Shown: piece by piece, positions 9,368-43,643 of the stretch
Numbering within the stretch: the first letter of the stretch is position 1
Layout of the letters: each line of letters begins with the position of its first letter
Assembly: GCA_963843575.1 (NCBI GenBank)
Contig: CAWJKZ010000004.1
Coordinates: forward strand, 88,465 to 152,464
Length of the DNA stretch: 64,000 nt
Source of the DNA: an uncultured Acidobacteriota bacterium
GTDB taxonomy: Bacteria; Acidobacteriota; UBA6911
Direction of reading: 5' to 3'
Position numbers and translations under genes: made by a program
Notes under the pieces: model-generated
The model's database searches: none
Seen by the model: only the letters and a program-made list of their open reading frames with translations
Told to the model about the DNA's origin: nothing

Positions 9368-9411
9368 GGCATGCATCCTCCAGCGCCACTCGGTTTGAAG
9401 CAGAACGTTCC

Positions 9412-10737
9412 TCAACGACCCGAGCTGGCGCGCAGGGAGCGCTCCACGTCCAGTGCCCACCCGACTGATTGTCCGCGTCGTTCGCGGGTTTCTGTGATGA
9501 GGTGCAGGTTACGGGCTGTGGTCTCGGGTTCCCAAACTTCCCGCACCGCGGCAAGAGCATTGGCCAGCGCATCGTCGGCGGTTGCCTGGTCGTTCGCCAG
9601 CACCGCCAGTTCCAGCCGCGTCGCGTGGTCCCAGTAATCCGGCTTGCCCGCAGCGATCCGGCGTTCGACCGCGTATGAAACGACGGGGATGATCCGCAGC
9701 CGTCGTTCATCGGGCGGATCGCGCAGTTCCATGAGCGTTACGGCGTTGATGCCGGGATAGGCGTCGCGCCAGTCGGCCTCGAATCCCTTCAGATAGGCGT
9801 CAATCGCCTTGTTCAACAATCCGCGTGCAAGGGCGTTTTCACCGGCCTTGGCTGCTTCCTCCCAACGGTCTTTGTAGACCCGCCCGAGGATGCCATAGGT
9901 TTCGCTGCTCGGTCCACGTTGACCGAGCAGGTCCAACAGCACCCGTTCTGCCTCGTCCCCGCGATTGGCCCGATTCAACGCCAATCCCAGTTGTTCGCGC
10001 ACCATGACCGTCGCCGCCAGCGGAGGAGTCATTTTCGGCACCAGCTCGATCATGTCGGACCACGCCTTCACAGCCCGATAGGACAGGAAGAGATCGATGA
10101 CAACACCGGCCTCGGCATCAGCGAGGTCGGTGATTTCCTCCTCGATCTCATGGAGGGCGTCGCGCCCCCGCTTCCTTGCCCCGGCCAGCTTTGCTCGAAG
10201 CTGCTCCGCATAGGTGACGCGTTCCCGAAAAACATCCGTCTTCAGCCGCTGAATGTCGGGGAATCCATCCAACAGCTGGTAGACGGGGCTGTCGATTGGG
10301 TAGTGCCGTGCCCCTTCCAGCCGTTTGACTATCCTGAATCGGTCGTCGTCGACATTCGCGGGCTTGCCATTCGCTCCCAGCCTGTAGGGAACCGCACGGA
10401 GCGGACCCACATCGAAAGGGAGTTGGCCCGAACCCTCGGCGAAGATCAGGACCGTGCTGGCCGGCCGAACGGCGTGTCGGAGCCCGAGCTCGTAGAACAC
10501 GTTCGCGTTCGCGGTGGTGAGATCCGCCACGGCATATTCGCAGAGGATGAGCCGCTCGAACATCGGCTTGTGGATCATCCCGCCGGCCTGCTCCTCGTCG
10601 GCACGCAGCGGTTCCAGCGAGGCTTCCCGGATCGCGGGAGCGATCAACTCGTTGAAGACGGCGTCGAACTGGATCGGCATCCCGCCACTACCCGGTTTAG
10701 TGCCAAACGGCATTAAAACGAAGCAGAGAGGCTTCAT
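9412..10737 (-). CDS. Deoxyribohydrolase/TIR-like domain + TPR-S (DUF4071/MAP3K TRAF-binding-like) protein
   Basis: MKPLCFVLMPFG...RADEE...ADLTTANANVFYELGLRHA...LPFDV (nucleoside deoxyribosyltransferase-like fold), then LFLSYRAVKAW, EQLGLALNR, SETYGILGRVYKD, YPGINAVTL, DYWDHAT, WEPETTARNL. Confidence 0.85.
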   Translation of the reverse strand: MKPLCFVLMPFGTKPGSGGMPIQFDAVFNELIAPAIREASLEPLRADEEQAGGMIHKPMFERLILCEYAVADLTTANANVFYELGLRHAVRPASTVLIFAEGSGQLPFDVGPLRAVPYRLGANGKPANVDDDRFRIVKRLEGARHYPIDSPVYQLLDGFPDIQRLKTDVFRERVTYAEQLRAKLAGARKRGRDALHEIEEEITDLADAEAGVVIDLFLSYRAVKAWSDMIELVPKMTPPLAATVMVREQLGLALNRANRGDEAERVLLDLLGQRGPSSETYGILGRVYKDRWEEAAKAGENALARGLLNKAIDAYLKGFEADWRDAYPGINAVTLMELRDPPDERRLRIIPVVSYAVERRIAAGKPDYWDHATRLELAVLANDQATADDALANALAAVREVWEPETTARNLHLITETRERRGQSVGWALDVERSLRASSGR

Positions 10738-10970
10738 GGTTTGGTTTCTCCCGCAAACTGAGCTTCGGCCCACCAGAGGTCGGGCCACAGTTCTTCGCAA
10801 GAAAGGAAATAGAGCTGCGTCGACAGGCGGCCTTTCATTGAGGCCCGGTTTCGTTCGTCCGGCCCGTGAGAGCCACCGCCGGTAAGATCAAGTCTGAACG
10901 TACTCTAGGTCCAGATTGGTGGTCACCGTCAAGCGAAATTAGCGTGTGGCGGGCACATTCCTGGGTGGTG

Positions 10971-11043
10971 CTGGTCACCGGCTAACACGGCGGAACGCGG
11001 ATTTCATCGAATCTCACGGATTCACGGATCCGAATCCGCGTCC
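10971..11043. repeat. Copy of the ACGCGGAT intergenic repeat family
   Basis: 10971-11000 matches the reverse complement of 18246-18275 at 25/30 nt; tandem CACGGAT units ending in ATCCGCGTCC. Confidence 0.7.
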
Positions 11044-11251
11044 TTATCATATTTCTGAACTTCCTCGAGCGTCGTTTTGAGCTATGATTCTCGTCATATA
11101 GCCGGGGAGAGTGACCCCGAATCGGGAAGCAGCGAATCCTGTCCCAGACGGTGGTTTACTTGTCCCCCCCTTTCCTCTCCGCTGGCGCCATGTTGCGGAT
11201 GGCCGGTCCAGGCCACCCGGTGTCGAGCTTTGCAGACGCGGGGCCCTCACG

Positions 11252-14200
11252 ATGCTGATCAAGAAGATATTCCTGGCCTCCTCCTCGGAGCTCAAGGAGG
11301 ACCGCACGCAGTTCGAGCTCCTCATCAATCGCAAGAACAAGGAGTGGGTCGGTAAGGGCGTTTTCCTGGAGCTTCTGGTCTGGGAAGACTTCCTCGACGC
11401 CGTCTCGAAAACCCGCCTGCAGGATGAATACAACAAGGCCATCCGGGACTGCGACCTTTTCGTGATGCTGTTCTTTACCAAGGTCGGGAAATACACCGAG
11501 GAGGAGTTCGAGGCTGCGTTTGGCCAGTTCAAGGCCACCAACAGGCCCTTCATCTTCACCTATTTCAAGGACGCGGAGGTCAGCCTTGGCAGTGCGAACA
11601 AAAAGGACATGCTCAGCCTGTTCGCCTTCCAGGAGAAGCTGGACGCCCTGGGACACTTCTACACTCGATACGAGAACATCGACGCGCTGAAGCTTCACTT
11701 CACCCAGCAGCTGGACAAGCTCGCCGCGAGCGGGTTTATCGAGTTCGGGGCTGACAAGGCGGGAGGCAAAGCGCCTGGCGCGCCCTACCAGGCACCTCCC
11801 CCCGCGGCCGACCATGTCGCACGACCCGCGGAACTGGCGGATCTCAAGCGGCATCTCCTCGGCAAGAATGGGGAACTGCTCCCGAGCACGATCGGGTTGC
11901 ACGGCTTCGGCGGGGCCGGCAAGACTACGCTGGCGCGTCTTCTTTGCGCCGATGCCGCGGTTCGGCAGGCATGTCGGGACGGCATTCTGTGGGTGCCGCT
12001 GGGAAAGAACCCTCCGGAGCCGCGTGCGCAGATGGCAGATCTCGTCTCGGCCTTAACCGGTGATTGCAGCGGGTGTACCACGCTTCCGGGTGCGCGGGCA
12101 CGATTGCAGGCCGCACTGTCTAATAAAAACATCCTCCTCGTCCTGGATGACGTCTGGGATGAGGCCCAGGTCCGTGACGTCGTCGAAGCCAGCACCGGCT
12201 GCGCCCGGCTCATCACCACCCGCAACACGTTCACGCTGCCTTTCGAAGCGATCCTGATCGACGTGGGAACGATGCAGGACGAGGAGGCGGGACGCCTGCT
12301 TGCAGCCGGACTGCCGCAAGGTCAGGACGCGCGGCTCTCGGATCTCGCTCGCAAACTCGGATGCTGGCCGGTGCTGCTGCGTCTGGCCAACCGCACCCTG
12401 CGCCAGCGCATTTTGGGCCAGCGGACGTCGCTCCCCAAGGCGCTGGATGCGGTCGAGAGCGACCTGGCGCGCAAGGGCATTCTCGCTTTCGATCCCACAC
12501 GCGACGCGGCCGAGCGGGACCAGGCGGTCGCGGCAACCGTCGAAGCGAGTCTGGAACTTCTGGACCCCGCAGAGCGCCGACGCTATCTCGAGTTGGCACT
12601 CTTTCCGCAGGACATCCCCATCCCGCTGCGACGTGTCGCGGAGCTTTGGGAGCTCTCGGGTGGGATCACTTTTGAACAGGCCGAAGACCTCGTAACCACG
12701 CGACTCGATCCCCTGTCGCTGGTCGAATATAACGGGGAGGCCGGTACGATTCAGCTGCACGACGTTCTGCGTCGGTACGTCTCGGCCAAGCTGCCGGACA
12801 AGGCAACTCTGCACCTGCGTCTGGTCGAGCGGTGGGGCGACCGTCCCGCGCATGACGACCTCTATGGGTGGCGCTGGATCGCATTTCACCGCGCGCAGGC
12901 CGCCCTGGCGAGCGATCAACCTGCGCGCCACGCCCTGACCGAGCGGTTGGTGGGGCTTGTGACGGATGAGCAGTGGCAGAAAGTGCACGAAGACACGCTC
13001 ACGGATCCTCCCGCCCTGAGGGATGCGCTCGCGGTCGCGCTCGAGGCGGCCATCGCAGACGACGTGCCGCTGGGAGTCCCGCTGGTGGTCCGGGTGGCGG
13101 ACGCCCTCGTCGGTTTCCAGCGCGATCATTCCCGCCCGGAACCCGTGTTCGACCTCGCGCGGCGGGGTGATCTTGGCGGTGCCCGTCGCCGCAGCGCGCT
13201 GTTCTCCATCGACGAGCACTGGCGCCAACTGCTGATGCTCGCCGCGGCGTGGCTCGCGCCGCTCGATTGCCGCGACAGCGCGCGCAAGCTGGTGGACGAG
13301 ATCCAGGCCGAGCTCGCACCGCACCAGGCCCTGCGCGACCTGTGCCGCTGGATTCGCGCCGATCTTTGGGGCGAGCCCGCGCCGGCTTTCCCCTTCCTGG
13401 TTCCCCCCGACAAAGCCGACGAGGCGCTGATCGAGGAGTTGCTCAAACGCGTCGGCGGAGGTCAATACAGCCGGGAGCTCATCGTAAGCCGGGGACTCGA
13501 TCCGAACGTCGCGGACCCGGACACGCCTCCGCCGGCGGAGGGGCTCTACCGCCAGCCGGTGCTGGGCGGAACCAGCGCCAACGAGAAGGAAGAGCGGACC
13601 ACCACGCGCTATCTTGCCGAGCTGGACGGTCCCTACCTGGTAGCCTACGCGGCGCGCGATCCGGCGAACGGAAGGGAGGCTCTCGAACGGTACCTCAGTG
13701 TCTACACGAACTACAGCTATCCCGAGTACCGATTCAGTACCCTGTGGCTGCTCCTGGGCTACATTGTCCAGCTGCCGCGGACCGACGGCGGCCAGTGGGT
13801 CCGGGAGTGCGTCCTGCGGATTCTCACCTCGGCCTTGAGTGGCGGAAGCGTCGAATTCGAGAAGGGGTTGCCCATTGCCGCTACCGCCCTGCGCGCCCGC
13901 GCCGGGGACCAGGGCGCGTGGAAAACGCTCACCGAACAGGCTCGTCGGCTGATGGACGAGGCCGCTCGACTGAAGCCGGGACGCGACCGCGGGGGCAGCG
14001 ACATCTGGGCACACCAGAAGCGGCTGATGCTCGCAACCGCTCAGGCGCTCGGGTGGCTGGTGGGCGAAAAAACTCTGGCGGGCCAAGTCCTGCACGACGC
14101 GTTCGGTCTGGCCGATTCGGGTTTTGCCGGGTACCAGGCGCCGGCCTGCCTCGCACTGGCGGAGGCCGTTCTGGTGTGCCGGCGAAACGACCCCGAAGGG

Positions 14201-14887
14201 GCGGGAGAGATCGAGCAGGCACTGGAGTGGGCACAGCGGGCCGCGCACAACGTGCAGGACCCGACCTTTTGCGCGCGAATGACGGCCCGCGTCAACGCGA
14301 TGCGGCGAGGCTGGTCGCAAGGCTTCGACCCGGTCGCGGGGGCGCGGCGCCTGGCAGAAGCCGCCCACGCACCGGAGTTCGCCGCGCTGCACCGCGTCGG
14401 CCATCAATACACCGGTCGCAGGCCGGATGCACTGCCCCTTCCACCGTGGGCATTCGATGACGGGACCTTCGACGGGTTGCAGCGGCTCTATCAGCGTCCG
14501 AAAGCTGATTTCCTGCGTCTCAACATCGGCGCGAACGAGCCGTTCAAGAAGGACAGCAAACTGATCGTGCGTGAGGTGGCGGTGCCCGATCCGGGCTTCG
14601 TGCCGCATCTGGCCGCGAGACTTGCGGCCGAGGTGCTCGCTCAGGCAATCGACGTGCCCCTGTCGGCCGAGCGTCTGCAATTGCTGCGCTTGCTCGTGCC
14701 CTATGCCATACCGAGCCCAACGGCGCTCGATGCCGTGCTGACGCGGCTGGTGCTTGCGCAGGGCCGCCGCGCGGCGCCCGCAGGTCCCGCCGAGGTGGAA
14801 GCACTCGATGCCGTCATCGCGCGGCGCACGGCGACCAAGTCCGACGCGCCGGCAAGCGAGCTTCTTGCCGGGCGCTTGCCCGCCTGA
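11252..14887 (+). CDS. NLR-like STAND ATPase: N-terminal DUF4062/TIR-like domain, NB-ARC, winged helix, uncharacterised helical C-terminus
   Basis: N-terminus KIFLASSSELKEDR...CDLFVMLFFTKVGKYTEEEF; Walker A GFGGAGKT; Walker B LLVLDDVWD; LITTR sensor; GCWPVLL (GxP); LHDVLR (MHD-like). Confidence 0.88.
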   Translation: MLIKKIFLASSSELKEDRTQFELLINRKNKEWVGKGVFLELLVWEDFLDAVSKTRLQDEYNKAIRDCDLFVMLFFTKVGKYTEEEFEAAFGQFKATNRPFIFTYFKDAEVSLGSANKKDMLSLFAFQEKLDALGHFYTRYENIDALKLHFTQQLDKLAASGFIEFGADKAGGKAPGAPYQAPPPAADHVARPAELADLKRHLLGKNGELLPSTIGLHGFGGAGKTTLARLLCADAAVRQACRDGILWVPLGKNPPEPRAQMADLVSALTGDCSGCTTLPGARARLQAALSNKNILLVLDDVWDEAQVRDVVEASTGCARLITTRNTFTLPFEAILIDVGTMQDEEAGRLLAAGLPQGQDARLSDLARKLGCWPVLLRLANRTLRQRILGQRTSLPKALDAVESDLARKGILAFDPTRDAAERDQAVAATVEASLELLDPAERRRYLELALFPQDIPIPLRRVAELWELSGGITFEQAEDLVTTRLDPLSLVEYNGEAGTIQLHDVLRRYVSAKLPDKATLHLRLVERWGDRPAHDDLYGWRWIAFHRAQAALASDQPARHALTERLVGLVTDEQWQKVHEDTLTDPPALRDALAVALEAAIADDVPLGVPLVVRVADALVGFQRDHSRPEPVFDLARRGDLGGARRRSALFSIDEHWRQLLMLAAAWLAPLDCRDSARKLVDEIQAELAPHQALRDLCRWIRADLWGEPAPAFPFLVPPDKADEALIEELLKRVGGGQYSRELIVSRGLDPNVADPDTPPPAEGLYRQPVLGGTSANEKEERTTTRYLAELDGPYLVAYAARDPANGREALERYLSVYTNYSYPEYRFSTLWLLLGYIVQLPRTDGGQWVRECVLRILTSALSGGSVEFEKGLPIAATALRARAGDQGAWKTLTEQARRLMDEAARLKPGRDRGGSDIWAHQKRLMLATAQALGWLVGEKTLAGQVLHDAFGLADSGFAGYQAPACLALAEAVLVCRRNDPEGAGEIEQALEWAQRAAHNVQDPTFCARMTARVNAMRRGWSQGFDPVAGARRLAEAAHAPEFAALHRVGHQYTGRRPDALPLPPWAFDDGTFDGLQRLYQRPKADFLRLNIGANEPFKKDSKLIVREVAVPDPGFVPHLAARLAAEVLAQAIDVPLSAERLQLLRLLVPYAIPSPTALDAVLTRLVLAQGRRAAPAGPAEVEALDAVIARRTATKSDAPASELLAGRLPA

Positions 14888-14930
14888 TGCCTCTGCATTT
14901 GGGGACGCGGATCGTCTTTTCGGCAGAATG

Positions 14931-15009
14931 ACTTCGAGGTTCTTTGAGGTCTTGGAGGTAAGTTCCTTAGCCCACCTCCAAGACTCCAAGACCTCAAAGA
15001 ATCTCCAAG
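14931..15009. repeat. Hairpin built from short periodic units
   Basis: Perfect 18-bp inverted repeat TTCTTTGAGGTCTTGGAG (14940-14957) / CTCCAAGACCTCAAAGAA (14984-15001); units CTTCGAGGT, CTTTGAGGT, CTTGGAGGT. Confidence 0.8.
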
Positions 15010-15117
15010 TGCGTTTGCGGCTCTGCCGCGCCGTGTTGTTCTGCGGTCGTTACCGTTTGCCGCGGGTACTTTTATGTGCAATGAGCATGAAAAACAGCAG
15101 GCCGGGTGTCCCAACCC

Positions 15118-16674
15118 ATGAGTGACATCTTTCTGAGCTATGCTTCCGCGGACCGTGACAGGGTTCGCCCTCTGGTCGCCTGGCTCCAAGGCAGAGGCTG
15201 GTCGGTGTGGTGGGACCGCACTATCGTTCCAGGCCAGACATGGGATGAGGTTCTTGCCGTGGCGCTGGCAGACTCCCGTTGCGTACTCGCGGTCTGGAGC
15301 CGGGCTTCTGTTAATTCCGACTGGGTGCGCATCGAAGCCTCCGACGGCAAGGAGCGGGAAATCCTGGTGCCCATCCTCATCGACGACATCGCCCTCCCGC
15401 TTGCCTTCCGACTTGTCCAGGCAGCCTCGCTGGTCGGCTGGAACGGCGAAGAGAATCACCCTGCCCTGACCCAGGTCGCTCTCGGCATCAGCGCGATCCT
15501 GAACGACACGCGTCCAAAGGAGAGCGCCCTGATTCGACCTGCGCCAGCCGCTCACATCGAACCGCGTGTTCTGGACGCCGCCATCTGCCGCCACCTTCCA
15601 GTCCATGAGCCGGCCGACTTGATCGCCATGGTTCGCCGCGAGGCCTCGGGGGGGCTTCGAGCAATCCTCGAATTCGATGAGGAATATGCCATGTCGCCTT
15701 CCGACGTGGCCTCCAAGCCCTTCGAGCTCGAATTCCCGCTCGATCCGGCGGGCAAGCCGTTGGGCGCAGAGCTCCTGCTCCGCATCAAGGCCCCGGATTT
15801 CGAGCCTCCGTCCCAGGAGAAGAAACTTCGGGTTCCGCCGGGCCGCGACTCCGTCGTGTGCGCCTTCCTTCTGACCCCACAGGTTCAGGGGAACCTGCTC
15901 GTTCAGCTGGAGGTCCTCCAGGGCGAATCGTCTGTAGCCTCGCGCCTGCTTCGCCCAACCGGGATTCCTTCGGACCGTCCCGTCGCCCGGCGCGCCGGGA
16001 TGGTCGTGTCGATGCCATTGCCGGTCTCCGTCCACGATCTGGACCGCACGGCCGTGCCCTACGGACCTCCGCCGGCCGGCAGCCGTCCCATCGAGAGGGA
16101 GAAACCCGTGGGAAGCGCGCCGGAACAGCGCCGTCCCGCTGCGCCGGCACCTCGTCACCCGGAATCAGGGGAATCTGATGATACGGTTTCGTTCCCGAGG
16201 CGTCGTCCCCGCTCACATTCTTACATGAGACTGGGCACCATTGCCGCCGCACTGTTCGTTTGTGTGACGGCCACTTACCTGTTCTATCTGCCGAGGGCAG
16301 CCCCGCCTGGGATGGTGCGGCCGACTCCGCCCGACGCCGCGCCAGTTATTCCGCCCGTGACGACTCCGCCGTCCACGCCGGCGAAGCCAATGCGCGTCGA
16401 AGCAGACGTGCAGGCATCCAAGCTGGTCAGGAGAGTCGCCCCGGCCTATCCCGAGGCGGCGAGGCGGAGTCGCGCGCACGGCGAGGTTGTGCTGTCGATA
16501 CACGTGGACCAGGCGGGAAACGTCTCCGAAGTGAGTGTGCTGAGCGGGCACCCGCTGCTGCGTGATGCCGCAGTCGAGGCAGTGCGTCGATGGAAGTACT
16601 CACCAACTCTGTTGAAGGGAGAGCCGGTTCCTGTTACAACCACAGTAACGGTGACACTCGAACCTCACGACTGA
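15118..16674 (+). CDS. TIR domain - unknown beta-rich domain - TM helix - TonB C-terminal domain fusion
   Basis: TIR motifs DIFLSYAS, VWWDR, VWSRASVNSDWVRIEA; TM LGTIAAALFVCVTATYLFYL; Pro-rich linker; TonB_C PAYPEAARR...GEVVLSIHVDQAGNV...SGHPLLRDAAVEAVRRWKYSP. Confidence 0.85.
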   Translation: MSDIFLSYASADRDRVRPLVAWLQGRGWSVWWDRTIVPGQTWDEVLAVALADSRCVLAVWSRASVNSDWVRIEASDGKEREILVPILIDDIALPLAFRLVQAASLVGWNGEENHPALTQVALGISAILNDTRPKESALIRPAPAAHIEPRVLDAAICRHLPVHEPADLIAMVRREASGGLRAILEFDEEYAMSPSDVASKPFELEFPLDPAGKPLGAELLLRIKAPDFEPPSQEKKLRVPPGRDSVVCAFLLTPQVQGNLLVQLEVLQGESSVASRLLRPTGIPSDRPVARRAGMVVSMPLPVSVHDLDRTAVPYGPPPAGSRPIEREKPVGSAPEQRRPAAPAPRHPESGESDDTVSFPRRRPRSHSYMRLGTIAAALFVCVTATYLFYLPRAAPPGMVRPTPPDAAPVIPPVTTPPSTPAKPMRVEADVQASKLVRRVAPAYPEAARRSRAHGEVVLSIHVDQAGNVSEVSVLSGHPLLRDAAVEAVRRWKYSPTLLKGEPVPVTTTVTVTLEPHD

Positions 16675-36308: not shown

Positions 36309-36761
36309 GTGCTCGACATATTCATCGATGCCGACGGCTGCCCCGTAAAGCAGGAAGTGTATCGCGTCGCGCAGCGATACAGCTTGCACGTTACTGTTGT
36401 CGCCAATTCACGGATCACCATACCGTCCGGGGATTGGGTAGATCTCGTCGTTGTTGAAGGGCAGTTCGACGCCGTCGATGACTGGATCGTGGAGCATGTC
36501 GCGGCGAACGACATCGTGATCTCGGCGGACATCCCCCTGGCGGCGCGCTGTCTCGATAAAGGAACTCTGGTTCTCGGTCACCGCGGGGATACGTTCACGC
36601 AGGATTCCATCGGCGAAGCCCTTGCGAGCCGCGCGTTGCTGGCGCATGTTCGGGAACTCGGAACAATAACGAGGGGCCCCGCTCCGTTCGACAAGCGTGA
36701 TAGATCCCGTTTCCTTCAGCGCCTGGACGAGACCATTCAGGCAGCTCGGAGGAGAGGGTGA
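36309..36761 (+). CDS. YaiI/YqxD (UPF0178) family protein
   Basis: From GTG 36309: IFIDADGCPVK, VVAN, DAVDDWI, ADIPLAARC, FLQRLD. Confidence 0.9.
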   Translation: MLDIFIDADGCPVKQEVYRVAQRYSLHVTVVANSRITIPSGDWVDLVVVEGQFDAVDDWIVEHVAANDIVISADIPLAARCLDKGTLVLGHRGDTFTQDSIGEALASRALLAHVRELGTITRGPAPFDKRDRSRFLQRLDETIQAARRRG

Positions 36762-37025
36762 GCCGCACTCCACCACGGCTCCTCGCCGGCAACCGAACGG
36801 TTGGTGCTTCAATTCTCCTGCTCGGATTCCATCTGCTGTGGATTGCTTGATCCTGAACACAAAAACGGCTCAGAAGCTCCGCGATCCGGGAGCGATCTCG
36901 CCGCCGGGCCCACGGCCCGCGGATGCCGAGGACAGGACAGGGCCAGACCCCTGCGCCGATGGAGCCACCTCTCAGTCCGCCCTTTACGCTTGCCACCTCA
37001 GAAACTGAATTGATAGCATGGCGGC

Positions 37026-37073
37026 GGTGATGAGGTTCGCCATAACCGGCACCTGTACCTGATGGCTCCTACC
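37026..37073 (+). ncRNA. Fluoride (crcB) riboswitch-like aptamer
   Basis: GGTGATGAGGTTCGCC-ATAA-CCGGCACCTGTACC-TGATGGCTCCTAC follows the fluoride riboswitch pattern (GGyGAUGgaGUUCrCC...UAA...CUrAUGrCuyCUAC). P1 GGUGA/UCGCC pairs fully; the pseudoknot pairing is imperfect. Confidence 0.72.
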
Positions 37074-37111
37074 TTGAGGCAATCCTCGGGAGGGGACTGC
37101 AAAAACAGGAG

Positions 37112-37152
37112 ACCCTGCCTGAGCTGAAGTTCGGGGAGGGTTTTTCTGTTTT
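37112..37152 (+). terminator. Intrinsic terminator in the leader of the RND operon
   Basis: ACCCT-G-CCTGAGC-TGAA-GTTCGGG-G-AGGGT stem-loop followed by TTTTCTGTTTT, between the aptamer and the TolC-like start. Confidence 0.8.
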
Positions 37153-37276
37153 GAGCGGTCTCATCCGGGGATGTGCCGGGGTGATCCAGCCCCACGTTCG
37201 CACGCGGCGGAACGAACCGCCCTCGGTTTGAAATCGATTCAGTGTTTGCGCTCAATCACGATGAGGGAATTAATCC

Positions 37277-38557
37277 GTGCGCAATCTCTTTTTGATCGTA
37301 GGTTTTCTTGTAGCATCCGTTATGTGCGCACCCGCGCAGCAAGCCTCTCAAGTCCTCACATTGCAGGATTGCATCCGGCTGGCAGAGGCGGCGCCGTCGA
37401 CGGTGAGCATTGCCGAACGGGAGCAGGAGATCGCGGCGCGCGATATTTCACAGGCTCGCGCCGGCTACCTCCCGCAATCTCATCTGGCGAACGGCTTCAC
37501 CTACAACAGCCCCTTGCTCTACAACCGCGAGGTCTTCAGTCACCTGCCGCTGAACGGGATTCGTGAATATGCGATGCTTCTCAGCGTGAACCAGGAAGTC
37601 GACACATCCGGCCGACTGCGCGCCCAAATGTCCAGGGCGCGCATTTCACGGGAAATAGCATCCACGGGCATTACGCTGGCCCGGCGCGACCTCAAGCGGG
37701 CGGTAACGGCTTCTTATTACCAGGCTCTCCTGACACGGCGCATCGTCCGGATTGCGCAAGAGGCGCTCCTGGAGGGCCAGGGCTTCGAGAAGCGCACCAG
37801 CCTGCTGTTCGACGGGGGAGAGGTGGCACAAGCCGATCTCGTGAAAGCTTCGGCGCAAGCAGCCTTCCTTCAGCAGGCGGTGAATGCCGCGCAACTCGAC
37901 CAGAAGCTCGCCGAGCAGGAACTGGCCTCTTTCTGGACCGCCGACGTGGCCCGGCCACTTGCGCTGGCCGACGTTCTCGACGATGCTCCTCCCGCCCCCG
38001 ACGGCGCAGCCACGCAATCCGCCCCCTTCCTCAAGCGCCCTGAATTCAGCCTTTTCGATGCGCAGCAGAGGGGCTTTCAGGCCGACGCGAGGCGCGCGCG
38101 GGCCGACCTGCTTCCGCAGTTGGGCGTAGCCTTTCAGTACGGCATCGATTCCACTGCCGTCGTGATACGTGATCGTGGCTACGCCGCCTTTCTCAACCTC
38201 ACGATCCCGATCTTCGACTGGAACAGGGCGCGCTCAGCGATGCAGCAGGCACGGCTGAAAGAACAGCAAACAGAACAGACGCGCGCTATGTCCGAGCGCG
38301 CGTTTTCGAAAGAGTATCAAAACGCGCTCGCGCGGGTTAGGCAGCTCTTCGAGCAGATCCCATTGACCCAACGCCAGGCGAAACTCGCAGAGGATGATCT
38401 GCGGTTGAGCCGAATCCGCTATGAGGGCGGCGAGGGATCGGCCCTGGACGTCGTGACCGCGCAAAATCAAGTGGCGCAGGCAAGGACGAATCAGTACGCC
38501 ACGATCGCGAATTATCTCAATGCCAAGGCAGACCTGGAGGTTGCAGCCGGACGATGA
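37277..38557 (+). CDS. TolC family outer membrane efflux protein
   Basis: Signal peptide; ARAGYLP, LLPQLG, IPIFDW, RYEGGEGSALDVVTAQ. Confidence 0.9.
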   Translation: MRNLFLIVGFLVASVMCAPAQQASQVLTLQDCIRLAEAAPSTVSIAEREQEIAARDISQARAGYLPQSHLANGFTYNSPLLYNREVFSHLPLNGIREYAMLLSVNQEVDTSGRLRAQMSRARISREIASTGITLARRDLKRAVTASYYQALLTRRIVRIAQEALLEGQGFEKRTSLLFDGGEVAQADLVKASAQAAFLQQAVNAAQLDQKLAEQELASFWTADVARPLALADVLDDAPPAPDGAATQSAPFLKRPEFSLFDAQQRGFQADARRARADLLPQLGVAFQYGIDSTAVVIRDRGYAAFLNLTIPIFDWNRARSAMQQARLKEQQTEQTRAMSERAFSKEYQNALARVRQLFEQIPLTQRQAKLAEDDLRLSRIRYEGGEGSALDVVTAQNQVAQARTNQYATIANYLNAKADLEVAAGR

Positions 38558-39783
38558 GAAAACGTAGCCTGATATTCCTCTTCCTTGTCGCACTAGCGGG
38601 CTGTTCCTCACCCGAGGAGACCCCTCCCAGTCCCGTCGTGGACGTGAAGGTCGCCAAAGCCGGGACCGCCGATGTCAAGATCACCGTGCGTGCCCCCGCC
38701 ACTGTCTTTGCCCGCGAGCAAGCCAACATCAGCAGCCGTGTTACGGCGCCCATTCACAAGCTGCTCGTCCGGAAGGGAGACAACGTTGCGGCGGGCCAGG
38801 TGCTGGCGCAACTCGACAACCGGGACCTGCTTGCCCAGCAGAGAGAAGCACTGGCGGCGGTCACGGACGCCGAAGCCAACCTGCAACGCATGACCACTGG
38901 GACGCTGCCGACGGACGTCGAGCGGGCGCGCGGGCAAGTGGTCAGCGCGGAGGCGGCGCTGAACCAAGCCCAGAAGATTCACGACCGGCGGCGCCAGCTG
39001 TTCGACCAGGGAGCCATCCCCCAGCGCGAGCTGCTGGTGAGCCAGACCGAACTGGCACAGGCGAGGGCTTCCTACGAGGTGGCGAAAAATACTCTCGATC
39101 TGCTCCAGAACCAATCGCGCGACAAGGACATCCTCATCGCCAGAAGCAAGGTGGAGCAGGCCCAGGCGCGGCTCGCTCTCGTCAGGGCGCAACTCGAGTT
39201 CACCGAGATTCGGAGCGCAACGGCGGGGACGATCACCGAGCAGTTCATGTTTCCCGGCGACATGGCGAAACCTGACGCACCGCTTTTCACCGTCATGGAT
39301 TTGAGCGTTGCAGTCGCTCGCGCCCAGATGCCGGAGAGCGCAGCCGTTGCGGTCAGAGTGGGGGAGCCGTGCACATTCGTGCCTTCCGACAACAGGGGGG
39401 CTTCATTCGGCGGCCGCGTCTCGATGGTCAACCAGGCGGTCGATCCTGCCCGCCAAACCGTCGAGGCCTGGTGCGAAATCCCGAACCCGAGGCGCCTCCT
39501 TCGGGGCGGAGTGTTTGGACAGGCAATGATCGTCACCGGGATTGCGCCGAAAAGCGTTGTCGTCCCTTTGACGGCGGTCCAATTGACTGAGGGCACCAAG
39601 AAAGGATTTGTCATGGTCGTCGGCGACAAAGGAGCGGCGACCAAAAAGGAGGTTGAGATCGGGGAAGTCATCGAGGGCACTGTTCAGGTCAAGAGCGGGT
39701 TGACTGCCGGAGACTCCGTCATTGTCCAAGGCGCTTACGGGTTGCCCGAAGGCACCCAGGTGCGGGTGCAGGAGGAGAAATAG
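38554..39783 (+). CDS. RND efflux periplasmic adaptor (MFP) lipoprotein
   Basis: Lipobox LAGC; lipoyl motif VRKGDNVAAGQVLAQLD; coiled coil; start overlaps the TolC stop (ATGA). Confidence 0.92.
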   Translation: MRKRSLIFLFLVALAGCSSPEETPPSPVVDVKVAKAGTADVKITVRAPATVFAREQANISSRVTAPIHKLLVRKGDNVAAGQVLAQLDNRDLLAQQREALAAVTDAEANLQRMTTGTLPTDVERARGQVVSAEAALNQAQKIHDRRRQLFDQGAIPQRELLVSQTELAQARASYEVAKNTLDLLQNQSRDKDILIARSKVEQAQARLALVRAQLEFTEIRSATAGTITEQFMFPGDMAKPDAPLFTVMDLSVAVARAQMPESAAVAVRVGEPCTFVPSDNRGASFGGRVSMVNQAVDPARQTVEAWCEIPNPRRLLRGGVFGQAMIVTGIAPKSVVVPLTAVQLTEGTKKGFVMVVGDKGAATKKEVEIGEVIEGTVQVKSGLTAGDSVIVQGAYGLPEGTQVRVQEEK

Positions 39784-39785
39784 CC

Positions 39786-42700
39786 GTGACCGCCCGCCTC
39801 GCTCAATTCGTTCAGGCCCACGCCCGGGCCATGGCAATCATCGTCCTCAGTTTTGCGCTTGCAGGAGTGGCATTCACTTTTCGCCTGCCCATCGCGATCT
39901 TTCCGCAGACGGATTTTCCGCGAATCGTCATCCTGGTGGACAACGGCATCACGCCGGTGGACATCCAGATGCTGCGCGTTACACGCCCCATCGAGGAGAC
40001 CATTCGCATTGTTCCCGGCATAACGACCATCCGGTCGGTAACCGCGCGCGGATCGTCCGAGATCAGCGTCTTCTTCCGGTGGGACGTGGATATTCTTAAT
40101 GCGCTCCACCTCGTGCAGGGTCGCATCTCCCAGATTACCCCGTCGCTGCCGCCGACATGCCGGTTCTACATCAATCGTCTGACTTTTTCTGTTTTCCCGA
40201 TGGTAGGCTTCAGCATCACGTCCCCGACCCGCTCACAGTCGGAGCTGTGGGAACTGGCATACTACAACATCGCCCCGCGTCTCTACAGGCTGCCGGGTGT
40301 CGCAGAAACCCGCATCGTCGGCGGGCGCCTTCCCGAGTACCACGTCCTGGTGGACCCGCAGAAGCTGAACAGTTACGGAATGCCTCTGACGAAAGTCACC
40401 GATGCCCTGCGCAGCAACAACATCATTTCGCCGTCGGGAATGGTCCAGGAAAACTACCACCTCTACCTGACCACTGTGACGGGTCTGCTGCGCACCCGCG
40501 AAGAGATCGAAAACACCGTGGTCGACATCCGGGCCGGAACGCCGGTCGCCGTGAAGAATCTCGCGCAGGTCGTAGCCGGAGAGCGGCCCACCTACAACGT
40601 CGTGACTGCCAATGGCCGGCCGGCCGTATTGGTGAATGTGCTGCAGCAGCCGGACGGAAACGCCGTGCAGATCGCCGATGCGGTAAACGCCGAGTTGCGC
40701 GACATCAAGACTCTCCTCCCCCCGGACATCGAACTCGCGACCTTTTACGACCAGTCGGTGCTCGTGCGAGAATCGATCTCGGGAGTAACGGAAAGCATCC
40801 TGATTGGCCTCGTGCTGTCGGTGATCGTGCTGCTGGTTTTTCTCAAGAGCTGGCGCACCACCCTCGTGGCGGCGGTCGTGATCCCGCTGGCGGTGCTTAT
40901 GGCGATCGTCTTCATGAAGTTCTTCAACATGAGCTTCAACCTGATGACGCTCGGGGGATTGGCCGCCTGTATCGGGGTTGTGATCGACGATGCGATCGTG
41001 ATGGTGGAGAACATCGTCGTGCATATCTCCACGGGCCAGTCTCCCACGGATGCCGCGAAGAGCGCCATCACGGAGCTCACCCCGGCGCTGACCGGCTCCA
41101 CCCTCACTCCCATCATGGTCTTCGCGCCCCTGGTCATACTGGGGGGGGTCACCGGCGTCTTCTTCCGTGCCCTGGCCCTGACCATGGTCACCGCGCTGCT
41201 CGCTTCCCTGTTCCTGGCGATCTTCTTCACGCCGACCCTGGCCGCCATTTTCTTCCGCCGCCCGGCCGGGGCAGCGGAAACTGACATCGAAAAGGCGGAG
41301 CAGTCGGGCGAGGGGCGGATCCTGCGCTGGCTCACGGCGCGCTACGAGATTGCCCTGCACTGGTCCCTCCACCATCCGCGATCCATTCTCCTCGCCGCGG
41401 TCGTGCTGCTCGCCCTCATGGTCGGCATTTACTACCAGCTGGGCAGCGGTTTCTTACCCGAGATGGACGAAGGGGCCTTCGTGCTGGATTACGTCATGCC
41501 CCCGGGCACCTCGTTGCTGGAAACGGACCGTGTGCTGAAGCACATCGAGGCATTCCTCAAGGAGACGCCCGAGATTGAGAGCTATTCGCGCCGCACCGGC
41601 GCCCGCCTGGCTCTCGCCATCGCGGAACCGAACACGGGCGATTTCCTCATCAAGCTCAAAAAGAACAGAAAACGCGGCCTGGAAGATGTGACCTCCGAGC
41701 TGCGGCGCAAGATCGTCTCTTCGGAGCCGGCCATAGAAGTGGAGTTCCCGCACATACTCGAGGACCTGATCGGCGATCTCGCGTGGTCGCCGCAGCCGAT
41801 CGAGATCAAGGTGAGCCACGACGACGAAGCCACCTACAAGCGGGTTGCGAAAGAGATCGAGGAGTGGCTTCCGAAGGTGCCGGGAGTCGTGGACATTGTC
41901 AATCGGACGATCGTCATCGGCCCATCCATCAACTTCCGCGTGGATCCGGAGAAGGCGCGCCTGGCTGGATTCGGCGTGCAGGACGTCGCCGACCTGCAGG
42001 CTGCGATGCTCGACGGCGAGGTGGCCTCGGATCTCATTCGCGGGGAAAGGCTGGTGGGCATCCGGGTTCGATATCCGGTCGAGTACCGCTCGTCGACGGA
42101 AAAACTGAAGTCTCTGTTGCTGACTTCTCCGACCGGGCAGACCGTTCCGATGTCGAGCATCTCCGACGTTGAGGTGGACCAGGGCACAACCGAGATAAGG
42201 CGTGAGAATCTGCGCAACATGTCGGCGGTGACCGCTCGTCTCGAGAGACGCGACCTCGGGTCGGCGATCCGGGAGATCCAGCAGCGACTTCCAAAGGAAA
42301 TCGCCATTCCGCCCGGCACGCATATCGAATTCGGCGGCCTGTACGAAATGCAGCGGGAATCGTTCCTTGGACTGACGCAGGTTTTGTTGTTATCGATCCT
42401 GCTCATCTTCATCATCCTGGTCTTCGAATTCCGCTCCTTCTCGCATCCGCTCGCGATTCTGGCGGCGACGATTCTGTGTGGTTCGGGCGCACTCGCGGCC
42501 CTATGGGTCACGGGAACCACGTTGAACATCTCTTCGTTCATGGGCGCTATCATGGTGGTCGGCATCGTCCACAAGAACGGCATCCTGATGCTGGACGCGG
42601 AACAGTATTTTTCAGAGAGGGGTTACGAGCTGCGCGAGGCGATTTTCCACGCCGGACGGCGTCGTTTGCGGCCTATTACCATGACCGCGCTGGCCACCAT

Positions 42701-42857
42701 TTTCGGCATGGCCCCGCTGGCGGTTGGAGCGGGTTCCGGAGCGCAACTGCTCCAGCCGCTCGCCATCGCAGTGATCGGCGGGGTCGCGGTTTCAATGGTC
42801 TTGTCGCTCCTGATCACCCCGGTCCTTTTCTACCAGCTGCGCCAGCACGGGCTGTGA
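39786..42857 (+). CDS. RND efflux permease (AcrB/CusA superfamily)
   Basis: 1023 aa; LPIAIFPQTDFP, GVVIDDAIVMVENI, FLPEMDEG, KNGILM, RRLRPITMT, QPLAIAVIGG. Confidence 0.95.
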   Translation: MTARLAQFVQAHARAMAIIVLSFALAGVAFTFRLPIAIFPQTDFPRIVILVDNGITPVDIQMLRVTRPIEETIRIVPGITTIRSVTARGSSEISVFFRWDVDILNALHLVQGRISQITPSLPPTCRFYINRLTFSVFPMVGFSITSPTRSQSELWELAYYNIAPRLYRLPGVAETRIVGGRLPEYHVLVDPQKLNSYGMPLTKVTDALRSNNIISPSGMVQENYHLYLTTVTGLLRTREEIENTVVDIRAGTPVAVKNLAQVVAGERPTYNVVTANGRPAVLVNVLQQPDGNAVQIADAVNAELRDIKTLLPPDIELATFYDQSVLVRESISGVTESILIGLVLSVIVLLVFLKSWRTTLVAAVVIPLAVLMAIVFMKFFNMSFNLMTLGGLAACIGVVIDDAIVMVENIVVHISTGQSPTDAAKSAITELTPALTGSTLTPIMVFAPLVILGGVTGVFFRALALTMVTALLASLFLAIFFTPTLAAIFFRRPAGAAETDIEKAEQSGEGRILRWLTARYEIALHWSLHHPRSILLAAVVLLALMVGIYYQLGSGFLPEMDEGAFVLDYVMPPGTSLLETDRVLKHIEAFLKETPEIESYSRRTGARLALAIAEPNTGDFLIKLKKNRKRGLEDVTSELRRKIVSSEPAIEVEFPHILEDLIGDLAWSPQPIEIKVSHDDEATYKRVAKEIEEWLPKVPGVVDIVNRTIVIGPSINFRVDPEKARLAGFGVQDVADLQAAMLDGEVASDLIRGERLVGIRVRYPVEYRSSTEKLKSLLLTSPTGQTVPMSSISDVEVDQGTTEIRRENLRNMSAVTARLERRDLGSAIREIQQRLPKEIAIPPGTHIEFGGLYEMQRESFLGLTQVLLLSILLIFIILVFEFRSFSHPLAILAATILCGSGALAALWVTGTTLNISSFMGAIMVVGIVHKNGILMLDAEQYFSERGYELREAIFHAGRRRLRPITMTALATIFGMAPLAVGAGSGAQLLQPLAIAVIGGVAVSMVLSLLITPVLFYQLRQHGL

Positions 42858-42971
42858 ATCGCATCCGGAAGGCCAATATCGCTCCTGCCACAGAAAAGAA
42901 CAAGCCGCGGCCGGCAGCCCGATCAGTCCTCTATCACTGTCGGGATCTTGGCCATTCGGCTGTTACCGGCG

Positions 42972-43424
42972 CTAGTCGACGCGCACCTTGACGACGATCT
43001 TGTGCACCGGCGCCGGCGCGTCGGCGGCGAGGCCCGGCATGTGGGCATCATGGGGATAGAAGACCGCGAACATTCCGGCGCGGAGCGTGGCGAAGCTCCC
43101 CTGGCCTACGAGAAAGACCACGTCTTTTTCGTCGTCGTACTCCTGAACGATTCTCATGTCCGACACGAGCGAGTGTCCGATGGTCTCTACGCCCGACACA
43201 ATGAATTGGATATCCGCGTAGCGGCGATGAGCCTCCCACTTCCCAAGGCGGCGCGGCTTCGTTTCGTAGTGCTGGACGATCGCGAACACGTCCGGACCCA
43301 CGAGCTCGTGGCGTCCCGATTCTGACCGTAGCAGCTCACCGGACCGCAAGGCCCTAAATGCCGCTTCCATTCGGGGTCCCAGCGCGAAATAAAGCGGTGC
43401 GTTTTGCAGATGGTCAACGATCAT
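42972..43424 (-). CDS. YhcH/YjgK/YiaL family protein
   Basis: MIVDHL, WEAHRRYADIQ, YDDEKDVVF, FAVFYPHDAHMPG, KIVVKV. Confidence 0.92.
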   Translation of the reverse strand: MIVDHLQNAPLYFALGPRMEAAFRALRSGELLRSESGRHELVGPDVFAIVQHYETKPRRLGKWEAHRRYADIQFIVSGVETIGHSLVSDMRIVQEYDDEKDVVFLVGQGSFATLRAGMFAVFYPHDAHMPGLAADAPAPVHKIVVKVRVD

Positions 43425-43643
43425 GGAGATCCTCGCAAAACAGCATCATACCCTTTGCTGGGCAGCGTCACGCCGGAGATCCCCTTGGTTCGAGCCGACG
43501 GAAGAGCTCACCCGTACCAGGGGAGAGGATATTGTGCTATAAGAGCGGTCATCAGAGGCTTCCCGCGCGCAACGGCGACGTTCCCTGCCGAGCGAGGGAA
43601 GCCACAGACCACGCCCAGATCACCAGGGCAACACGAGGGTACC

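Follow-up and report, generated by a model that had tools for sequence, protein, structure and literature searches.

We analysed a 64-kb stretch of DNA (64,000 nt, hereafter the window) from an uncultured bacterium of the Bryobacterales (Acidobacteriota; GenBank assembly GCA_963843575.1, contig CAWJKZ010000004.1), in which a fluoride riboswitch aptamer lies directly in front of the genes for a tripartite efflux pump of the resistance-nodulation-division (RND) type. The operon consists of three plus-strand genes. The first one encodes a TolC-like outer membrane factor (OMF) of 426 aa (37277..38557), which starts with GTG after the sequence GAGGGA and matches PF02321 with two repeats (136.8 bits). 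It is followed by the gene of a periplasmic adaptor, or membrane fusion protein (MFP), of 409 aa (38554..39783; PF16576; TIGR01730 with 195.9 bits at a cut-off of 94.9). The third gene encodes an RND permease of 1023 aa (39786..42857) that covers profile positions 10-1020 of 1021 in PF00873 with 802.4 bits and in which the N-terminal sequence LPIAIFPQTDFPR was confirmed. The start of the adaptor gene overlaps the end of the OMF gene by 4 nt and the permease gene begins 2 nt past the adaptor stop codon; the three genes would be translationally coupled. The next gene after the permease lies on the opposite strand. Pump and switch stand alone in the window, as neither a CrcB or CLC gene nor any other fluoride-type gene was found among the 55 frames called, and the family search gave no match to PF02537 or PF00654 in the three operon proteins.

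The whole window was compared with the 4227 families of Rfam 15 using cmscan. The sole match reaching its gathering score was the fluoride riboswitch aptamer (crcB motif, RF01734) at 37017..37078 on the plus strand, with 39.1 bits against a gathering score of 34, an E-value of 2.6e-07 and model positions 1-64/64 covered. P1 comprises four pairs between 37023-37026 and 37035-37038 (GGUG/CGCC, one of them G.U). P3 is located at about 37047-37058, where three of the four pairs are standard and the remaining C.A pair was flagged by cmscan as non-canonical. The 3' tail of the aptamer, GCUCCUAC, is the putative pseudoknot partner of the P1 loop. All 27 invariant columns of an alignment of 19 aptamers (A1) are present in the window aptamer, and the core nucleotides surrounding the ion pocket are conserved, both the GAUG of the P1 loop and the UGAUG ahead of the tail. 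According to our reading of the alignment, four of the five positions of the putative pseudoknot between the loop GAGGU and the tail GCUCC would pair, two of them as G.U, while the fifth is an A.C mismatch.

The aptamer is embedded in a leader with the elements of a transcriptional switch. A sigma-70-like promoter candidate at 36990..37019 (+), composed of TTGCCA, an 18-nt spacer and TG-TAGCAT, is the sole promoter-like site in 36500-43600 and would place the transcription start near the first aptamer bases; the same scan found no such site between the terminator and the OMF start. The intrinsic terminator at 37104..37152 (+) is built from a stem of 37104-37124 with 37129-37150, the loop UGAA and a U-tract reaching to 37152. 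Its arms form a duplex of -28.2 kcal/mol and the hairpin occurred in every full-length fold, while a simple terminator scan caught only its inner part (37118-37135). The terminator is separated from the start codon of the first gene by 125 nt. The leader region 37020-37290 folds with a z of -3.8, and none of 200 shuffles folded as well. Two additional helices were predicted. A switching helix (anti-antiterminator) at 37066..37095 (+) would pair the aptamer tail plus UUGAGG (37066-37079) with CCUCGGGAGGGG (37084-37095) at -14.3 kcal/mol, and it was present in the predicted minimum free energy (MFE) structure when the nascent RNA 37026-37128 was folded with its aptamer left unconstrained. An antiterminator at 37085..37123 (+), in which CUCGGGAGGGG (37085-37095) would pair with CCCUGCCUGAG (37113-37123) in the 5' arm of the terminator at -15.8 kcal/mol, appeared in the predicted MFE structure once the aptamer (37026-37073) was made unavailable. 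The leader is predicted to work as a three-helix relay with ON-switch logic.

A preliminary description of this locus had listed a crcB-type aptamer at 37026-37073, a strong terminator at 37112-37152, a tightly coupled TolC-MFP-RND operon and the lack of a Fluc/CrcB or CLC-F gene in the window, and had named the Rfam covariance model as a check on the aptamer. These coordinates and this description are correct, since the Rfam, terminator and gene-family results agree: the aptamer lies inside the significant RF01734 match, the terminator has a long stem and a U-tract, and the genes of the three confirmed families overlap or abut at 37277-42857. The leader shares P1, P3 and the GAUG and UGAUG cores with the RF01734 riboswitches of crcB and eriC-F leaders, together with a putative pseudoknot between P1 loop and 3' tail as well as, by folding prediction, the ON logic through a terminator. 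It differs from them in that it precedes a tripartite RND pump, in its predicted three-helix relay platform instead of a terminator overlapping the aptamer tail, and in carrying one mismatch each in the pseudoknot and in P3.

Taken together, we consider it likely that a transcriptional ON-type fluoride riboswitch gates the expression of the OMF-MFP-RND operon in this genome. Transcription would start at about 37025. Without fluoride, the 3' tail of the aptamer (CUCCUACC) would pair with 37084-37095, the terminator at 37104-37152 would be free to form and transcription would halt ahead of the first gene. With fluoride bound together with Mg2+, the tail would be locked in the aptamer pseudoknot, so that 37085-37095 could pair with the terminator 5' arm (37113-37123) and the polymerase could read into the pump genes.

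The pairing of riboswitch and pump recurs in relatives. The 80 top-ranking loci with a relative of the RND permease (64-92% identity) were examined. The order OMF-adaptor-RND is kept in nearly all of them, and the genes flanking the operon in the window (DUF188 and GH42-like) are found in none. A simple pattern search detected aptamers in 3 of the 80 loci and missed variants; a covariance model (R1) was built from 19 aptamers of relatives. A total of 67 orthologous operons of Bryobacterales and other Acidobacteriota had a readable OMF start and upstream DNA, and their OMFs (43-79% identical) keep the same position. In 14 of these operons R1 detected a plus-strand aptamer ahead of the OMF gene, at a distance of no more than 400 nt. 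The Rfam model RF01734 passed its gathering score in 10 of 11 of these aptamers (36.4-53.5 bits) and failed for L093; L038, L041 and L084 were not among the 11. The preliminary description had pointed to a riboswitch or a neighbouring crcB/DUF190 gene at orthologous operons, and both were found, the riboswitch in these 14 and such neighbours for example at L036. The 14 include L083 and L084, which are the same sequence in two metagenome-assembled genomes (MAGs), and L041 and L105, two gated operon copies in one MAG. All 14 stem from MAGs; in the isolate Paludibaculum fermentans (L108) the operon lacks the switch. The MAGs with the identical riboswitch-pump locus of L083 and L084 (RND branch lengths 0 and 0.001) are labelled Verrucomicrobiia and Terriglobales, which reflects either a binning error or a recent transfer.

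In L051, an additional RND permease gene comes immediately after an aptamer; the orthologous RND gene, which has an internal stop, is found further along. Together with this locus, 15 pump-linked leaders were available. These leaders are of a compact build, and in 14 of the 15 (the exception is L093) the aptamer tail itself provides the 5' arm of a hairpin (9-13 bp) with a U-rich tract behind it, some 55 nt ahead of the start codon. The fold is maintained across the 15 aptamers, with 96.2% of the cells paired (P1 100%, P3 95.3%, pseudoknot 94%), compared with 41-63% for slid partners. Four pairs changed on both sides, P3 shows compensatory changes, and 0 of 500 shuffles reached the covariation score. 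Metagenome contigs were also scanned for exact matches to the 3' part (17 bases) of the compact aptamer. The riboswitch is followed by OMF-MFP-RND in L122, L132 and L198, where the RND proteins are 86-88% identical, and by RND in L152. A further RND gene ends shortly before the aptamer in L198, which suggests tandem pump operons.

A FastTree phylogeny of 71 RND proteins (midpoint root, SH-like support, no bootstrap) was calculated, leaving out L051, L097 and L103 (internal stops or frameshifts) and partial genes. The window RND falls in a supported clade (96) of 10 rows, 7 of them with an aptamer directly upstream; L034 and L045 have an aptamer next door and L035 has none. Gated pumps also occur in at least four other, separate branches (L044, L048, L062, L083/L084 and the L051 paralogue), so that at least 5 state changes are needed. 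This pattern represents either an old linkage with many losses or repeated gains, and either case points to a functional tie of switch and pump. Because the pairing is conserved, the pump family is very probably fluoride-induced.

Several observations weigh against a working riboswitch at the window operon. Its P1 loop reads GAGGU, compared with GGAGU or GGGGU in the 18 other aptamers of relatives, P3 contains the C.A pair, and the score of 39.1 bits lies below the about 45-60 bits of relatives. By its sequence the aptamer is somewhat degraded, with one mismatch in the pseudoknot and one in P3, and given its A.C and C.A defects it may be a weaker binder than the aptamers of relatives. Shuffles of 36500-43600 contained 1.3 +/- 1.1 promoter-like sites compared with the single one observed, and position alone speaks for this site. 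Likewise, the 6 terminator-like sites of this region are no excess over the 5.3 in shuffles, and since the count is no better, the evidence for the terminator consists of its position and stem length. No aptamer was found at 53 of the 67 orthologous operons, including the two nearest relatives of the window, L034 and L045, and a genome of the same genus (G001, 81% complete) yielded neither the riboswitch nor, with this query, the OMF gene. The window leader is also of another build than the other 14 leaders, and its best match is the relay-type dynamin riboswitch of L034 (76% over 87 nt). Among public RNA-library contigs none extends over the riboswitch, and no public run contained more than 0.14 of the sampled words. 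Two sediment metatranscriptome contigs with one difference each cover the OMF start region (37232-37446, 215 nt) and part of the adaptor gene (38775-39000). With a depth of about 2.5 and possible DNA carry-over, such contigs cannot show starts, ends or levels and are therefore silent on regulation. Moreover, the fluoride-resistance island GI3 of Enterobacter cloacae FRM (PMC5533749) carries an RND adaptor and permease beside a fluoride-riboswitch operon with crcB, enolase and other genes, and Table 1 of that paper gives 0.9- and 1.4-fold values for these RND genes, i.e. no induction by fluoride. Those RND genes are not located behind the riboswitch, whereas in the window aptamer and terminator lie directly before the pump operon.

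Could the window leader have been derived from another one? An alignment with MAFFT had hinted at a decayed compact riboswitch at 37165-37255. This candidate was rejected, as local alignments to intact leaders stayed at shuffle level (z = -0.2 to 1.5, 36-171 of 300 dinucleotide shuffles scoring as high). The regions upstream of the L034 and L045 pumps gave borderline alignments, L034 with L040 (z 4.0, 0/300) and L045 with L036 and L040 (z 3.4 and 2.7), and this likeness failed against L033 or L037. Because the window leader is most like the dynamin riboswitch of L034, it could be displaced. In our view it is rather improbable that the window leader is a displaced or decaying one, such as a remnant of a neighbour's dynamin-type riboswitch left by a rearrangement, and that the operon is transcribed independently of it. 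The C.A pair in P3, the A.C in the pseudoknot, the closest match to the minus-strand riboswitch of L034, the missing plus-strand aptamer in the nearest relatives and the 125 nt between terminator and start codon are compatible with it. However, the aptamer still scores above the Rfam gathering score, and its orientation, the upstream promoter-like site, the full predicted three-helix relay and the strong terminator are intact. In addition, a working terminator before the operon would silence it unless regulated, the scan found no promoter-like site downstream of the terminator, and 14 other operons have a working-looking switch at the same place. Regulation by a fluoride-responsive ON switch remains our preferred reading of the window leader.

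The pump lies among other riboswitch-linked genes in several relatives. In L036, DUF190 and CrcB genes are located behind a minus-strand aptamer, followed by a metallophosphoesterase gene and then by the aptamer and the pump; L033 has the order metallophosphoesterase, aptamer, pump, with enolase just downstream. Four aptamers surround the pump in L044, together with genes for DUF190, a pyrophosphatase, an AAA/NB-ARC protein and two MutS-like proteins; the aptamers at 10114-10182 and 3328-3385 precede the MutS-domain-V pair and the AAA/NB-ARC gene. A Na+/H+ exchanger gene stands behind a divergent aptamer beside the pump in L045, where enolase lies behind another aptamer, and in L110 an aptamer is followed by a Na+/H+ exchanger, DUF190 and then the pump. 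In L054, a CLC with CBS domains and DUF190 lie behind an aptamer downstream of the pump. A dynamin-family GTPase is encoded behind a divergent aptamer beside the pump in L034, L095 and L097, and in L086 aptamer, dynamin-like gene and pump follow one another on the same strand. We propose that the pump is an accessory member of a broad fluoride stimulon of Bryobacterales, which would further comprise crcB, DUF190, enolase, pyrophosphatase, Na+/H+ exchangers, MutS-like ATPases, metallophosphoesterase and dynamin-like GTPases. Two further aptamers were found before a glutamine synthetase gene (L038, 15637-15691, 27.8 bits with the R1 model only) and before a cyclopropane-fatty-acyl-phospholipid synthase gene (L062, 10321-10378).

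Behind the fluoride riboswitches of this lineage, the first gene most commonly encodes a dynamin-family GTPase (PF00350, about 560-650 aa, in one case 951 aa). Such a gene came first in 6 of 16 cases among relatives and in 31 of 50 open reading frames (ORFs) behind one aptamer variant, often with a gene of the major facilitator superfamily (MFS) next. Dynamin-riboswitch loci were found among the metagenome contigs L120-L199 as well as at L010, L012, L014, L015, L017, L021, L034, L038, L062, L086, L095, L097 and L115-L117. Our literature search found no paper joining fluoride, riboswitch and dynamin. The variant in question, AATGATAGCTCC, had been considered as pump-specific. This was refuted by the mixed genes behind exact matches in metagenomes, for which 80 of at least 120 matching stretches were surveyed, giving 50 ORFs with a length of 80 aa or more that followed a match lying in aptamer context. 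Besides the 31 dynamin-family GTPases these encode 7 enolases, 3 CrcB, 3 OMF and 1 RND protein, 1 metallophosphoesterase, 2 beta-propeller proteins, 1 3-keto-disaccharide hydrolase and 1 familyless protein.

In one relative (L115/L116, G023:C71:1-24804), six fluoride aptamers are found within 16 kb. The genes linked to them are, in order, dynamin and MFS; dynamin (951 aa), an unassigned gene and glutamine synthetase; two MutS-domain-V proteins and an AAA protein; a P-II protein region; enolase; and dynamin with a STAND NTPase. Many of these genes encode nucleotide-hydrolysing enzymes. An RND operon was considered inside this cluster and was not present, since the gap holds the second dynamin-like GTPase and the glutamine synthetase. 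In the window itself, at 6653-16674, lies a defence-like run of genes that encode a patatin with a TPR-S sensor domain, a MAP3K-TRAF-binding/TPR-S protein, a 1258-aa NB-ARC (STAND) protein and a TIR domain fused to a TonB C-terminal domain.

The substrate of the pump was approached through its subfamily. Multidrug pumps of the hydrophobe/amphiphile efflux type (HAE-1) possess a proton relay of Asp-Asp in transmembrane helix (TM) 4 and Lys in TM10, and heavy-metal efflux (HME) pumps carry the TM4 motif DFG...DGA...EN. In an alignment to ZneA, TM4 of the window RND reads VIDDAIVMVEN and TM10 reads HKNGIL, where ZneA has VLNAII; TM4 of ZneA is DFGIIVDGAIVVMEN and the window RND shows ACIGVVIDDAIVMVEN at the aligned place. 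As these motifs are commonly defined, the permease thus appears to have the Asp-Asp/Lys proton relay of the AcrB type and not the heavy-metal motif. Its scores lie below the cut-offs of every named NCBIfam subfamily: the best model, RND_permease_2 (NF033617), gave 611 bits with a cut-off of 1250, the AcrB, MdtC and MdtB/MuxB equivalog models 278-430 with cut-offs of 1584-2150, and the CusA/CzcA model TIGR00914 559 with a cut-off of 701.45. The best solved relative is ZneA (4k0e) with 366 bits over the full length, followed by CusA (329) and AcrB (about 290), and the second-best NCBIfam match of the adaptor is CzcB/NccB. Judged by these scores, the permease is about equally distant from multidrug and metal pumps, and our classification goes no further than a tripartite RND pump from a subfamily without a name. 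It shares with the HAE-1 pumps AcrAB-TolC and MdtABC the set of OMF, adaptor and permease, a permease of about 1020 aa, the TM4 Asp-Asp and the TM10 Lys. In contrast to them, it is apparently controlled by a riboswitch instead of a TetR- or two-component-type regulator, and it scores only about 290-330 bits against solved HAE-1 members. Compared with the HME group of ZneA, CzcA and CusA, ZneA is the closest solved relative, yet TM4 lacks DFG...DGA and TIGR00914 remains below its cut-off.

Known bacterial fluoride defence comprises the inner-membrane exporters Fluc and CLC-F, extra copies of fluoride-sensitive enzymes and pH homeostasis. The assembly that contains the window (G000; 6.68 Mb, 27 contigs, 88% complete) has three fluoride aptamers. 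Besides that of the window, the best of the genome (45.6 bits; L001, G000:C10:600667-603731, 1501-1565) has a relay platform and terminator like those of the window. The frames behind it (89, 71 and 99 aa) have no Pfam match; one of them reads GNHD without an upstream start codon and may be a broken gene. The third aptamer (36.1 bits; L003, G000:C12:268263-271341) precedes the gene of a 388-aa Na+/H+ exchanger (PF00999), and Na+/H+ antiporters are among the riboswitch-associated classes listed in a 2024 review (PMC11139923). The family search found neither CrcB nor CLC in this assembly, and tblastn with CrcB proteins of relatives reached a best E of 0.016; at 88% completeness, the absence of these exporters is suggestive only. 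Likewise, CrcB was not found in the genomes of the two nearest relatives (L034, L045). Among 61 genomes (G000 and 60 relatives), the riboswitch occurs in 26, CrcB in 14 (including G046, which is flagged as unpublished) and some CLC in 26. Neither CrcB nor a full-length CLC was detected in 13 of the 26 riboswitch-bearing genomes (G000, G006, G010, G012, G014, G019, G023, G026, G029, G034, G037, G045 and G047), several of which are 94-98% complete. As PF00654 does not separate CLC-F from chloride CLCs, the gap of genomes without a known fluoride exporter may exceed 13 of 26. Among the genomes that carry the pump loci, CrcB was found in 9 of the 13 whose pump is gated, in 15 of 19 with an ungated one and in 3 of 7 with an aptamer nearby, counted irrespective of completeness. 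At these frequencies the pump would therefore generally act beside Fluc and not in its stead.

What, then, would be exported under fluoride control? The preliminary description had proposed a fluoride-induced RND exporter of fluoride, metal-fluoride complexes or organofluorines. Its regulatory half agrees with the predicted ON-type leader and the conserved pairing; the export of these substrates found no support, and the AcrB-like DD...K relay, CrcB in 9 of 13 gated-pump genomes and the 53 of 67 orthologous operons without a riboswitch speak against it. We regard it as unlikely that the pump itself is a fluoride exporter, which would move F-/HF, or complexes of fluoride with Al, Be or Mg, out of the periplasm across the outer membrane, thereby forming a third, trans-envelope resistance route. 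In favour of such a role, the pump appears to be gated by a sensor of cytoplasmic fluoride and stands among known fluoride-defence genes, CrcB was not found in the genomes of the window, L034 and L045, nor CLC in that of the window, neither CrcB nor a full-length CLC was detected in 13 of 26 riboswitch-bearing relatives, and the metal pump ZneA is the best solved relative. However, CrcB is about as frequent with gated (9/13) as with ungated pumps (15/19), TM4 lacks the heavy-metal DFG...DGA motif in its usual definition and shows the AcrB-like DD with the TM10 Lys, and TIGR00914 with 559 stays below its cut-off of 701. The Na+/H+ exchanger with DUF190 and the MFS genes under riboswitches are better placed for inner-membrane F- transport, HF and F- should pass porins so that pumping across the outer membrane would bring little gain, and we know of no RND pump for a small anion.

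There is about an even chance, in our estimation, that the pump is an ordinary amphiphile or multidrug (HAE-like) exporter that was put under fluoride control in some lineages. Its task would then lie in coping with secondary damage or in remodelling the envelope under HF stress, and a fluoride species would not be its substrate. The AcrB-like DD/K relay, the multidrug model RND_permease_2 as best NCBIfam match (611 bits) and the 53 of 67 ungated orthologues are in line with this, as is the riboswitch control of other membrane-related genes, namely dynamin-like GTPases (31 of 50 ORFs) and the cyclopropane-fatty-acid synthase of L062. On the other hand, 611 bits is far under the RND_permease_2 cut-off of 1250 and the similarity to metal pumps is equally high, and the repeated gain or retention of the switch at one pump family argues for a specific link. 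Overall, the evidence on the substrate leans against a simple fluoride or heavy-metal exporter. Our best guess is that the pump clears the periplasm or membrane of something harmful under fluoride or HF stress, which would be amphiphilic or complexed rather than free cytoplasmic F-, and that it would act alongside an inner-membrane exporter without replacing one.

In the review mentioned above (PMC11139923), the gene classes associated with riboswitches are exporters, Na+/H+ antiporters, pyrophosphatase, HAD phosphoesterases, enolase and formate hydrogen lyase. Neither an RND pump nor dynamin is among the classes in the consulted part of this source, where the word RND is absent. Similarly, our literature search found no report of a riboswitch-gated RND pump; a mention in Baker et al. 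2012 or in supplements is possible. The pumps of this family seem to belong to the bacterial fluoride response as a component not described before.

Acidic soils and peat are habitats in which HF readily passes into cells and complexes of aluminium with fluoride are common. It is quite unlikely that in acid-soil diderms the pump blocks the re-entry of fluoride from the periplasm as a true trans-envelope exporter of F-/HF or of fluoride complexes with Al, Be or Mg. In that case, it would be the first of the RND pumps to handle an inorganic anion or a metal-halide complex, and the exporter missing from the many Bryobacterales in which fluoride riboswitches occur with neither Fluc nor CLC-F. No known fluoride exporter was detected in half of the riboswitch-bearing relatives under study, which marks a gap. 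A conserved riboswitch-gated pump spanning the outer membrane, together with the frequently gated dynamin-like GTPases, suggests an unstudied envelope side of fluoride stress. This is relevant for the fluoride tolerance of soil microbes as well as for the engineering of organofluorine degradation, where the toxicity of fluoride is limiting (PMC11139923).

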